A stretch of DNA of 64,000 nucleotides. Origin: Candidatus Woesebacteria bacterium. Lineage in GTDB: Bacteria; Patescibacteriota; Microgenomatia; UBA8517. Below the pieces are notes generated by a model, which did not search any database, was not told the DNA's origin, and saw only the letters and a program-made list of their open reading frames with translations. Shown here in pieces: positions 51,304-56,097 of the stretch. The number at the start of each line of letters is the position of its first letter. Positions within the stretch are counted from its first letter, which is position 1. The DNA is taken from assembly GCA_016700095.1 (NCBI GenBank), contig CP065002.1, positions 496,463 to 560,462 of the forward strand, read 5' to 3'. A program made the translations under genes and the position numbers.

Positions 51304-54300
51304 TTATTTCGTGTTTAATAAATTAAACTTTCTCGATAATGCAACCGCTTTTTTAGGATCGATAATCGTAAAAATATTATCTAAAAATTGTTTTGCGCTT
51401 TTGTCCCAACTAAAGTTTTTCGACCAGACGATTGCATTTTTTGAAAGAGTTTTACGGACATCGTCTAAATTAATTAAGCTTTCCATTGTTTTTGCCCACA
51501 TTTCAATATCACCCACGGGAACGAGAATGCCGGTTTCATTGTCCTGAACAGAGTCAATTAGCCCGCTAATTTTTGATGCAATAACAGGTGTTCCGGCTTG
51601 GTTAGCTTCGATTATTGTGATACCCCAACCTTCAAAAGATGATGGTTGAAGTGAAACCCAACTTTCTGCCAGAAGCTTGTGTTTTTCTTCCTCGCTGACG
51701 TAACCCGTGAAAGTGACAGCTCCATGTAATCCATATTTATGGCTAAGGTTTTTTAAACTCTCAATACTTTCACCGAAACCGGCAATTGTTAATTTCGCGT
51801 TTCTATTTCTTTCAAGAATTTTGGCAAAAGCATGAATAACCGTATCTACGTTTTTGTATGGTTGTAATCGTCCCAGGTAAAGAAAAGAGGGATATGCCGT
51901 TTTCTTATAACCGTTTTTGTGATGTTTGTTTATGCCGGGATTAACGATATTCACATCGCTTTTTTCGGCCCAATTCATTTCGGCTATGGCATCCCGGGAT
52001 GACTGGGATACTGTGATAATTTTTGAATCACGATAGACTAAAGGCATGAGGCGTGATTCGATCAACATGGCGATGCGAGACAAGGGGAACGGCAGATGTT
52101 TTCTGAAAACATCCTGGTGGACATGATGAATGAGTAAGATTTTAGGAATTCTCGAATAAAGCGGCGTAAAAAATGGAATACCATTTTCACAATCTACGAT
52201 GCAGTCATATGTTTTTCTAAATCGAAAGATATAATAAACGGCTGCCCAGAAATACACTGTGTAGAAACCGCCTCTGCGGATTACAGATACTCCGTCCACT
52301 TTTTCGAATCCCTTATTTTTCCTGTCATTACCGCAAAAAATGGTTACCGAGTGACCATCCTTAACCCACCGTTTCGCCATTTCGTGAACATAGACTTCTG
52401 CGCCACCACCCCAGACATGTTTACTGTCTCGCCAGTTATAAATTAAAATGTTTAGTTTTTCTTTTGGTGCGGATGTCTTTGGCAGTTTTTGGAATAGTCG
52501 TCCAAAATCTACAAAGTTGTAAATAAGTGAGACAAGTTTGCTGTAGAAATAATGAACTAATATTATTGCCGAAAGTTGGATCACGGATAAACCTGTGATT
52601 ACCGATACGATGTGAGTGATACTATCGTGCCGTAGAGTGATTCCAATAACTTGTGCAATGGCAAAAGAAAATGTAATTACGGGAAATAGGTAATGATTTT
52701 TTATTTGGTGATAAGTTGTAATGGTGGCGGATAACACAAACGCAACCATCGCAAAACCATAGAGTGGTAATAAATCGATAATGCTTAAGGCTTTGTCACC
52801 AAACAGGTAGGGAATTGTTATCGGAGCACCTACGCCAAATATTACATAGCCGACGGTTGAAATTGAGGCGATAAGCAAAAACAACAATCCAAATGCCTTA
52901 CCGGAATCTTTACTTTCACCTTCGTTTTTACTAATCACAGGGATTAGAAATTGCGAAACTAGACCTGTCAGAAAATAAATCATCTTTCCGGATAGCGAAA
53001 GTAAGGCATATCGACCCGCCTCGAGAGGAGTCAAGAAATGTTTAGCCAAGATTATGTCTAGGGTCATGAAGGAAACAGACGCAAAACCTGTAAGCAGGGA
53101 AGTGGCAAAAAAGCCGGTCGGAAAAGTTAGATCCGTTTTTTGTAATTTATCTTTGTCGATGCCTTTGGTTAAATATACAAAAAGCGATGTTGCTATAAAC
53201 GCAAGTATTAAAGATATTGGTATCGCGGTATATATTAGTTCGGGACGATTTAGTGAAACAAATAGATATGTGATAAATAGTTTGGAACTTGCTTCAAGTA
53301 CAACAGCCAAAGCAATTTGAATAAACTTGAAATTTCCCATTAAAAATCCACCCGCAACAGAACCGGGAAGAAATACTAACCAGATAGGTGTGAACAAAAT
53401 AAAAGGCAGACTACTGTCAATTTGAAAATATCTAGCCAGAAATGGTATGGTCGCTACCCAGATAACGGTTACAGCAAGAGATGCGATGAAACTTTTCCCA
53501 ATAACCACTCTGACGAATTCTTTAACCGGTGATTTCAATTTACCCAAAAGAAAAGCACTTTTGTGATTTACGGTTCGACCGACGGCAGCGGAGATTACTG
53601 TAACCAAGGAAAATATACTACTCATTAAACTGACGGTTCCGAATTCTTCAAGGCTAACTTCGCGTCCCAAAAATGCGTTATAAATAAAGTTGGAAAAATT
53701 CGCAACGACAGACGATGCGATTAAAATTCCGCCACCAAACAGCGCGGGATGTAGTAGAACTCTGGGTTTTTTTTCACTAATCAGGTTAGGCGTTGCAGCC
53801 ATTTCCATTGTGACGTCGGCAAGGTGTGTTGCAACTACAGGTTTACTAAGATGATGACCGTGCTGGGTTTTTTCCCAGTAGTGCGGTTTTGTAAATAGCT
53901 GTTTGAAAGCAACTGCTGCAGCCGCCGATGTCATTAGCCAGTAAACAGGGACTAAAAATACATATTTAATTACCGACCAATTGCCACGTTTGGCTAGTCC
54001 TATCATATAATTGTAGAAATACACAAAGTTGCCGAAAACCAAAAGTGTGACTGCGGGATAGAAAACTACGGGAGGGTAAAGTGCTTCTATGGTAACACCC
54101 ACGTATGGATAAAGTGCGAAATAAGAAATAGTAAGAAGCCAAAGTAGGGGATTTATTAAAATGAAGACCATTCTCATGCCGATAATCAAATGAAAAACCA
54201 AAGCGTGAATGCCGTTTGTTTTTATAAAACCAATTGGATCACGCGTGTGGACGAGGTATGTTTGCAAATAACCTTTTATCCAGCGCGACCGTTGCTTGAT

Positions 54301-56097: not shown

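Follow-up and report, generated by a model that had tools for sequence, protein, structure and literature searches.

The 64,000-nucleotide stretch of Candidatus Woesebacteria DNA analyzed here (contig CP065002.1, positions 496,463 to 560,462; hereafter the window) carries on its minus strand one long open reading frame (ORF) in which four pieces of glycan-assembly machinery are joined into a single polypeptide. From the N terminus, these are a cytoplasmic family 2 glycosyltransferase (GT2) resembling the enzymes that make polyprenyl-phosphate sugars (module 1, M1), a membrane-embedded GT2 resembling hyaluronan and cellulose synthases (M2), a predicted transporter of the MOP superfamily (M3), and a cytoplasmic GT4 (M4). 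All of the modules come from known superfamilies. What appears to be new is the covalent union of a synthase-type GT2 with the parts of a flippase-dependent system for extracytoplasmic glycosylation, and the conservation of this arrangement in Microgenomates. The architecture by itself overturns no concept. An original prediction, made from the letters of the window, had called the architecture undescribed, and no paper was found on the fusion or its operon in bacteria of the Candidate Phyla Radiation (CPR), with subscription journals lying outside the coverage of the search. A 2026 preprint on CPR pili concerns a different operon. In databases the fusion is common within the lineage, under labels such as 'glycosyltransferase', 'hypothetical protein' or 'XagB'.

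The minus-strand frame is single and uninterrupted, as had been claimed, and all of the peptides originally quoted from it are in place: DIIVPVINEGDNI (residues 42-54) and FVDDHSTDHT (76-85) in M1; YDAEDKPD (471-478), TEDCDLG (565-571) and QRSRW (602-606) in M2; and GGAEVYVHEMAKRW (1231-1244) and EGWGITIIEANQAGTPVIAS (1489-1508) in M4. At the base composition of the window (GC ~0.37), stops are expected at 7.1% of random codons, and the chance probability of 1597 open codons is ~1e-51. Profile searches of the kind that had been proposed as a check also agree with the assignment of M1, M2 and M4, with Pfam placing a GT2 domain (PF00535) at residues 43-171, the domains Glyco_tranf_2_3 and Glyco_trans_2_3 (PF13641/PF13632) at residues 383-665, and the two GT4 domains PF13439 and PF00534 in the C-terminal part.

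The false joining of three or four genes, through a frameshift or through errors in sequencing or assembly, had been named as one way in which the finding could be refuted. Split versions do exist in some assemblies, and overlapping frames resembling frameshifts occur at three loci (L018, L019 and L029 in our numbering of loci, used throughout). However, a search of related genomes turned up the same continuous protein in many species, and the database clusters that contain it, more than 120 in number, stem from samples and assemblers that are independent of one another. Furthermore, the M1/M2 and M3/M4 junctions align without gaps across 120 orthologues, and the predicted topology is self-consistent. 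The chance that the fusion is an artifact is therefore practically negligible.

The best 120 database matches are all 1514-1818 amino acids (aa) long and 48-100% identical to the query, with 95-100% of its length covered. They were obtained from independent samples and bear names that place them in Woese-, Roizman-, Gottesman- or Amesbacteria or in Microgenomates. The full-length fusion also occurs in Daviesbacteria and Dojkabacteria, with identities of 48-70% across the more than 120 clusters, and in a collection with one genome per species at least 596 stretches encode relatives of M2. All four modules are conserved across the 120 orthologues, and their catalytic motifs are invariant or nearly so in an alignment of 26 sequences, on which the invariance of catalytic residues was judged here. 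Many contigs from third party annotation (TPA) metagenome-assembled genomes (MAGs), including those of L010, L011, L012, L013, L016 and L024, carry the four-module gene and the same operon under titles such as 'uncultured Gammaproteobacteria', 'Bdellovibrionales' or 'Verrucomicrobiia'. In view of what these contigs contain, such titles probably misstate the taxonomy of bins that belong to Patescibacteria. Two of the four-module proteins, P0117 and P0120 (1818 aa), bear an additional PF01636 domain (APH-type kinase), which may be a fifth module that phosphorylates a sugar or the product.

The protein probably begins later than its annotation states. P0001, a database protein of Candidatus Woesebacteria that is 100% identical to the window's and lies on a 1.27-Mb contig, is annotated by NCBI with 1594 aa from the ATG at codon 4 (56088). 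The N-terminal ~37 residues have no counterpart in nearly all orthologues (occupancy 0.04 in the alignment of 120), whose starts lie ~30 residues downstream of the annotated one, and the sequence TATAAT overlaps the annotated ATG (region 56080-56130, minus strand). For these reasons the real start is probably M33 (56001), with the annotated start too far upstream. This correction leaves the four-module finding unchanged.

M2 had been placed in the cellulose, poly-N-acetylglucosamine (PNAG) and hyaluronan synthase class on the strength of a full D,D,D,QxxRW set, and both the motifs and the class hold up. The D, DxD, TED and QxxRW motifs are present and invariant across orthologues, and the top sequence match among PDB entries is BcsA (8e-9). 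In the AlphaFold model of M2, two transmembrane (TM) helices precede a GT-A domain, which is followed by an interface helix bearing QRSRW and then by three to four further TM helices. In the numbering of the segment that was used to co-fold M2 with M3, the helices ahead of the GT-A domain occupy 18-37 and 39-68 and those behind it lie within 306-446, with predicted local distance difference test (pLDDT) values of ~65-90 in M2. The best Foldseek matches to the model are the hyaluronan synthases (HAS) of Chlorella virus (CvHAS) and Xenopus (XlHAS1), BcsA of E. coli and Rhodobacter, and PcManGT, and these matches extend over ~420-500 alignment columns, which is the length of the module.

Like BcsA, the class I hyaluronan synthases and PgaC/IcaA, M2 thus holds a GT-A domain with D, DxD, TED and QxxRW motifs between TM helices, together with an interface helix. 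In contrast to BcsA and PgaC, it has no PilZ domain (none was detected by a Pfam scan of the window protein) and no BcsB- or PgaD-type partner. Its conserved partner is instead a putative glycosyltransferase of the GT-C type, and three extra modules are fused to it. M2 also falls far below the profile cut-offs of both PgaC and CelA: the PgaC_IcaA profile (TIGR03937) aligns with it from end to end at 116 bits against a cut-off of 422.3, and the CelA/BcsA profile (TIGR03030) reaches 73.8 bits against 699. Among the 120 orthologues M2 is the most conserved module, TM helices included, and M3 the least.

M3 is recognized by its predicted fold and by Pfam matches in its orthologues, and not from the window sequence. 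The window's own M3 has no meaningful Pfam match even at E<=10, the sole match, to FixS, being meaningless. Among the M3 segments of 42 orthologues, Polysacc_synt (PF01943) was found in 14 (best 3.3e-11), MatE in two and PF13440 in one, and PF01943 and PF13440 are also precomputed on some full-length homologues. A profile built from the same 42 sequences gave only a spurious match, to a G protein-coupled receptor fusion, among PDB sequences. The AlphaFold2 model of M3 (pLDDT 85.7; predicted TM-score, or pTM, 0.86) consists of twelve long helices, and Foldseek matches it to MATE transporters, MurJ and the lipid III flippase WzxE (TM-score 0.64-0.76, probability 1.00). As modeled, M3 is a 12-helix MOP (Wzx-type) transporter, in line with the segment of about 12 TM helices and Wzx/MOP-like composition that had been predicted, and it would flip a polyprenyl-linked sugar. 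The linker that joins M2 to M3 varies in length and sequence among the 120 orthologues, and pLDDT falls below 50 at residues 452-495 of the co-folded segment (~44 residues).

The remaining two modules are predicted to lie in the cytoplasm, at the ends of the protein. M1 had been called DPM1/GtrB-like, and its closest solved relatives in a PDB sequence search are indeed the dolichol-phosphate mannose synthase (DPMS) of Pyrococcus (PfDPMS, 4e-19), ArnC (2e-13) and GtrB (1e-11). The motifs DDxSxD (residues 78-83) and DGD (129-131) are conserved, with D129 and D131 invariant. Judged from these matches, M1 appears to be a member of the DPMS/ArnC/GtrB class that lies outside any named equivalog. The two TM helices after M1 belong to the family profile of M2, since stand-alone M2 proteins have them as well, but they could be shared by M1 and M2. 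The claim of a C-terminal GT4 is unambiguous. In M4, PF13439 (residues 1231-1390, 57.5 bits) and PF00534 (residues 1392-1556, 144.9 bits, 2e-42) both exceed the gathering score, both glutamates of the E-x7-E motif (E1489 and E1497) are invariant, and the nearest solved relatives are MshA, BshA, PimA and TarM. In the topology that would follow, M1 lies inside and is followed by two TM helices, the GT-A domain of M2 inside, an even number of further TM helices (probably four), the linker inside, the 12 TM helices of M3, and M4 inside.

The same modules occur in many other combinations, which were surveyed by scoring one hidden Markov model (HMM) per module on the stop-to-stop ORFs of 84 loci. 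The full M1M2M3M4 form is present in most Microgenomates-type loci, in one from Dojkabacteria and in one record labeled 'Parcubacteria group'. An M2M3M4 form was found at L015, L017, L031 and L033, and M1M2M4 and M2M4 forms, from which M3 is cleanly missing, at L027, L036, L039, L052 and L051. Such in-frame loss of M3 would be explained by the proposed topology, which is self-consistent. Elsewhere the fusion is split into adjacent genes, as M1M2 and M3M4 (L020, L046, L049, L053 and L057), as M2 and M3M4 (L048 and L060), or as M2, M3 and a small GT2 (L059, L061 and L063). M1M2 stands alone at L032, L040, L041, L043, L044, L050, L065 and L073. In a library of representatives at 50% identity, a search with the M3 profile gave 731 clusters at E<=1e-30. 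The best 150 of these 731 comprise 73 with M3 alone, 29 with M3-M4, 12 with M3 and a GT2 (Polysacc_synt followed by Glycos_transf_2), nine with four modules and five with M2M3M4. The modules are separable units that have been joined repeatedly in evolution, a classic signature of one shared pathway, and this pattern of fusion and fission, like the module classes, the conservation of their motifs and the gene neighborhood, is a direct observation. Within the window, each module-specific family is present only once according to the module HMMs, whose only other matches are weak ones of M1 to three small GT2 genes of the downstream cassette. A local expansion of the family is present at L042 (positions 173-17615, in a MAG labeled Saccharimonadales), where a four-module gene whose M3 is truncated is accompanied by a separate gene for a full M3, by three tandem M1M2-type paralogues and by an extra M2-like gene.

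The frequency of the M3-M4 unit raises the question of whether one chain might house two independent synthases making two polymers, with M2 acting like BcsA or PgaC and M3-M4 acting like Pel, so that the GT4 would polymerize and the MOP protein would export. In the Pel system, PelF is a GT4 that is paired with PelG, a 12-TM protein of PST/MOP type, and M3-M4 can be likened to this pair by description only. M3-M4 is the commonest two-module unit among the best 150 representatives and the usual second gene where the fusion is split. However, PelG itself was rejected as the identity of M3, with no Pfam PelG match at E<=0.01 among the 42 M3 orthologues, a third of which match Polysacc_synt. Moreover, no PelD- or PelE-like genes were seen, M4 is also fused to M2 without M3, and M3-M4 here lies inside a larger protein. 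An arrangement of two synthases is thus very unlikely.

The partner most tightly linked to M2 is a 540-aa polytopic protein, a putative GT-C glycosyltransferase, whose gene lies further downstream in the operon of the fusion. A homologue of this protein directly follows the M1M2-only genes at L040, L041, L044, L050 and L065. In two Chloroflexota loci (L067:4238-7240 and L068:9788-12793), M2 is fused at its C terminus to such a homologue, and the GT-C part of the former is 33% identical to the 540-aa protein over 372 residues (1e-49). In a Dormibacterota MAG, a 1106-aa ORF directly after M2 (L075:11287-14604) combines a GT2, a GT-C-like part and a cellulase of glycoside hydrolase family 5 (GH5).

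Stand-alone orthologues of M2 from outside the CPR (~49% identity) carry two to six tandem MshEN domains at their N termini (L077, L079, L084, L071, L080, L081 and L082). They come from Chloroflexota, from Thermoleophilia, including the complete genome of a Paraconexibacter (L077), and from other groups. MshEN (PF05157) is absent from the window protein in the Pfam scan. Gating by cyclic di-GMP (c-di-GMP) is typical of exopolysaccharide synthases, and the apparent gating of the non-CPR orthologues through MshEN supports a reading of M2 as a polymer synthase rather than a single-addition transferase. In NfrB, the MshEN domain is C-terminal. MshEN is a high-affinity c-di-GMP receptor that is known to be fused to glycosyltransferases (PMC5013675). 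One enzyme under its control is NfrB, an exopolysaccharide synthase of E. coli and a membrane GT2 (PMC8669469), which shares the possession of MshEN with the non-CPR orthologues of M2. In the M2 orthologues, unlike in NfrB, the domain is N-terminal and repeated. NfrB was also rejected as a close relative of M2, with 19% identity and a pairwise E of 1e-4. Judged by domain content, the MshEN-M2 proteins look like an uncharacterized family of c-di-GMP-gated synthases distinct from NfrB.

Table. Positions of the fusion protein, its modules and motifs, and the genes of its operon, counted from the first letter of the window.
Feature	Position	Strand	Residues	Basis or remark
Whole ORF	51304..56097	-		1597 codons from TTG, stop included; 1597 aa
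Probable real coding sequence	51304-56001	-		start M33, 1565 aa
Module 1 (M1), cytoplasmic GT-A GT2	55228..55986	-	38-290	PF00535, PDB sequence matches
Module 2 (M2), membrane-embedded GT2	53848..55227	-	291-750	PF13641/PF13632, fold match
YDAEDKPD, M2 DxD motif	54664..54687	-		D472, A473, E474, D475 invariant
TEDCDLG, M2 TED motif	54385..54405	-	TED 565-567	E566, D567 invariant
QRSRW, M2 QxxRW motif	54280..54294	-		Q602-W606 invariant
M2-M3 linker, cytoplasmic, predicted disordered	53746..53847	-	~751-784	occupancy 0.41, conservation 0.12
Module 3 (M3), predicted 12-TM MOP-superfamily (Wzx/PST-type) transporter	52498..53745	-	785-1200	fold and orthologue Pfam
Module 4 (M4), cytoplasmic retaining GT4 (GT-B)	51307..52464	-	1212-1597	PF13439 and PF00534
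Species-variable cassette	43903..51231	-		Pfam
Nucleoside diphosphate (NDP)-hexose nucleotidyltransferase	50452-51231	-		Pfam
4,6-Dehydratase	49400-50464	-		Pfam
3,5-Epimerase-like	48868-49449	-		Pfam
DRL-type oxidoreductase	47570-48865	-		Pfam
Four small GT2 genes	46681-47577, 45746-46714, 44814-45761, 43903-44817	-		Pfam
509-aa polytopic membrane protein, putative GT-C (first of pair)	42367..43896	-		NF047440 1.3e-16
540-aa polytopic membrane protein, putative GT-C	40748..42370	-		NF047440 5.5e-7
426-aa N-terminally anchored extracytoplasmic protein	39460..40740	-		C-terminal CarboxypepD_reg
226-aa secreted protein, Ser/Thr-rich stalk, LATTG-type sorting signal	38573..39253	-		sequence; putative sortase substrate
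Sortase	38009..38560	-		PF04203, 1.9e-21

In the window the fusion gene is the head of a minus-strand operon, in which it is followed by a cassette of sugar and glycosyltransferase genes, by the genes for the 509-aa, 540-aa and 426-aa proteins, and by those for the 226-aa putative sortase substrate and the sortase. The ends of the operon are conserved among genomes and the middle is variable. Directly downstream of the fusion, the predicted sugar-nucleotide genes were confirmed as a nucleotidyltransferase, a 4,6-dehydratase and a 3,5-epimerase, and the family assignments in this part of the cassette (47570-51231) suggest that it makes a 6-deoxy hexose, possibly CDP-linked. The Gottesmanbacteria cassette (L003) resembles that of the window and has the same four sugar genes after the fusion. 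At the Amesbacteria locus (L001), these four genes are not present, and the cassette includes a PIG-L-GT2 fusion, a methyltransferase and a GT4.

The 509-aa and 540-aa proteins both match NF047440, which NCBIfam names 'LA_3751/LA_3752 family putative glycosyltransferase'. PMT_2 (PF13231) is matched by 8 of 25 orthologues of the 540-aa protein and by one orthologue of the 509-aa protein. GT-C enzymes have a catalytic Asp in the region before the second TM helix, and in the 540-aa protein Y56 and D58 are invariant and lie ahead of the second predicted TM helix. Both proteins are assigned, with moderate confidence, as putative GT-C glycosyltransferases. In a phmmer screen, almost all loci with sufficient DNA had the pair and the 426-aa protein encoded downstream of the fusion. 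Thus, at the level of family assignment only, M1, M3 and a GT-C pair occur together in one conserved operon. The N-terminal domain of the 426-aa protein matches no Pfam or NCBIfam family, and the same was found with Pfam for four orthologues. Its motifs had raised the suspicion of a GH5-like hydrolase, which was rejected: there is no match to any glycoside hydrolase family, the four orthologues included, and no similarity to the GH5 domain of the Dormibacterota ORF. The sortase substrate and sortase close the operon in ~15 loci. The 226-aa protein ends with 'LGLATTG', a TM segment and KKTVAR, and is a possible candidate for the glycan acceptor or the anchoring target. Further along the window, upstream of a gene for a major facilitator superfamily (MFS) transporter, a 1020-aa protein with a VIT (vault inter-alpha-trypsin) domain is encoded at 30358-33420 on the minus strand, with no evident tie to the glycan operon.

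This end of the operon could also be read as machinery for protein O-glycosylation. M1 would make a polyprenyl-phosphate sugar, M3 would flip it, and the PMT_2-like GT-C pair would glycosylate the Ser/Thr-rich sortase-anchored protein or pilins, with M2 and M4 serving some other product. PMT_2 is the protein-mannosyltransferase family, M1 matches the PgfS model (9.5e-14), and a Ser/Thr-rich sortase substrate and its sortase stand at the conserved operon end. Also, the S. mutans Pgf system (PgfS/PgfM1/PgfE/PgfM2) and the actinobacterial Ppm1/Pmt have, as here, a GtrB-like GT2 and polytopic glycosyltransferases near sortase-anchored Ser/Thr-rich proteins. However, the PMT_2 family also includes ArnT-like lipid and glycan transferases, the PgfS match is far below its cut-off, and the substrate and sortase were found in only ~15 of the loci. 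Furthermore, the GT-C partner tracks M2 and not the sortase, since in Chloroflexota and Dormibacterota it keeps its linkage or fusion to M2 at loci where no homologue of the sortase or its substrate was detected, and the Pgf and Ppm1/Pmt systems are without a synthase-type GT2, a MOP module or a GT4. O-glycosylation as the main function is therefore considered unlikely.

The explanation that we favor, and to which we give about an even chance of being right, is a two-track 'glycan assembly line'. On one track, M2 would polymerize a backbone glycan from an NDP-sugar and pass it through its own TM domain. On the other, M1 would move a sugar from an NDP-sugar onto polyprenyl phosphate, and a species-specific side chain may then be built on this lipid-linked sugar by M4 with the help of the variable small GT2 and GT4 enzymes and the NDP-sugar genes in the cassette. 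M3 would flip the lipid-linked donor, and the two GT-C proteins would transfer or polymerize it outside the membrane, with the product of M2 as the acceptor or, alternatively, the Ser/Thr-rich sortase-anchored protein. Here we infer the substrates, the processivity of M2, the cargo of M3 and the acceptor.

This two-track proposal is made because the list of parts matches the cell-wall polysaccharide pathways of streptococci (GacI/J-GacK-GacL) and lactococci (WpsA/B-WpsC-F-WpsG-WpsJ). In those bacteria, a GtrB-like GT2 (GacI, WpsA) charges undecaprenyl phosphate, cytoplasmic glycosyltransferases may extend the sugar, a Wzx-family flippase (GacK, WpsG) flips it, and a GT-C (GacL, WpsJ) joins it to a backbone that is made by a separate route (PMC9574508). 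In a Gram-negative three-component system, the part of the flippase is taken by a MATE-family protein (PMC11127046). GtrA/B/C, GacI/J-GacK-GacL, WpsA/B-WpsG-WpsJ and the set of a polyprenyl-phosphate-ribose synthase, a MATE protein and a GT-C all comprise the three classes represented here by M1, M3 and the GT-C proteins. In these systems, however, the synthase-like GT2 and the flippase are separate proteins, and an ABC-transporter or Wzy pathway supplies the backbone, whereas here the two are parts of one polypeptide that also contains a HAS/BcsA-type enzyme and a GT4.

Several observations weigh against the two-track proposal. The QxxRW motif and the modeled fold of M2 would fit processivity without proving it, and PcManGT, one of the fold matches and a 'minimal cellulose-synthase-like' protein, is described only as a mannosyltransferase. 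M1 is below the NCBIfam cut-offs for ArnC (57.7 against 529 bits) and PgfS (51.3 against 500 bits), and it has no TM helix before residue ~309, so that, unlike GtrB, DPMS and ArnC, it is without a TM hairpin of its own. The GT-C assignment of the 509-aa and 540-aa proteins comes from weak profile matches, and a profile of the 540-aa protein found no solved relative among PDB sequences. The co-fold of M2 with M3 gave a pTM of 0.53, compared to 0.86 for M3 alone, and no confident interface; with this score and a disordered linker of ~44 residues, the earlier idea that M2 and M3 might form one channel finds no support. Also, the module HMMs detected no M3 within 10 kb of the in-frame M1M2M4 loci. 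M3 is thus dispensable in cis, in which case another flippase may act or flipping may not be needed.

That PcManGT is described as a mannosyltransferase and not as a polysaccharide synthase also bears on a single-track, Wzx/Wzy-like scheme. In this alternative, M1 primes polyprenyl phosphate, and one lipid-linked repeat unit then gains a sugar from each of a non-processive M2, M4 and the cassette enzymes. M3 would flip this unit, with the 509-aa and 540-aa polytopic proteins as polymerase and ligase. A Wzx-type module and several single glycosyltransferases are present in one operon with a variable middle, and M3 is often fused to a cytoplasmic glycosyltransferase (GT4 or GT2), both of which would suit such a route. 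Against these stand the conservation of M2, which exceeds that of the other modules even in its TM helices, its invariant QRSRW, and the processive synthases at the top of its fold matches. In other phyla, moreover, M2 occurs on its own, with c-di-GMP receptor domains but no Wzx, and the scanned genes of the operon include no phosphoglycosyl transferase of the WbaP or WecA type. The single-track scheme is accordingly given a low probability.

A broader proposal can be put forward tentatively, as a possibility that we consider rather doubtful. M2 and its GT-C may constitute an unrecognized synthase-dependent glycan system that extends across several phyla of Terrabacteria type (Chloroflexota, Thermoleophilia, Dormibacterota and Patescibacteria). 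This system would be c-di-GMP-gated through MshEN outside the CPR, and in Microgenomates it would be welded to M1, a Wzx flippase and a GT4 in one polypeptide that both extrudes the backbone of the major glycopolymer of the cell envelope and supplies and flips the lipid-linked donors of its side chains. If true, this would be a physical coupling of the synthase and flippase pathways, which textbooks treat as separate routes.

There are several reasons why these findings matter for the biology of CPR bacteria (Patescibacteria), which make up a large share of bacterial diversity and are almost uncultured, host-attached organisms with an essentially unknown surface chemistry. The fusion is a conserved and recognizable marker of an envelope-glycan operon in Microgenomates. 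Its variants can also be used as 'Rosetta stones' that connect a synthase with a GT-C, Wzx with a GT4 or GT2, and a polyprenyl-phosphate-sugar synthase with a synthase. The MshEN-bearing orthologues point to an uncharacterized exopolysaccharide system under c-di-GMP control in Chloroflexota and Thermoleophilia. If the two-track proposal is true, synthase-dependent and flippase-dependent glycan routes would be coupled in one molecule, and the protein would be a compact object in which to study the coordination of backbone extrusion with side-chain addition.

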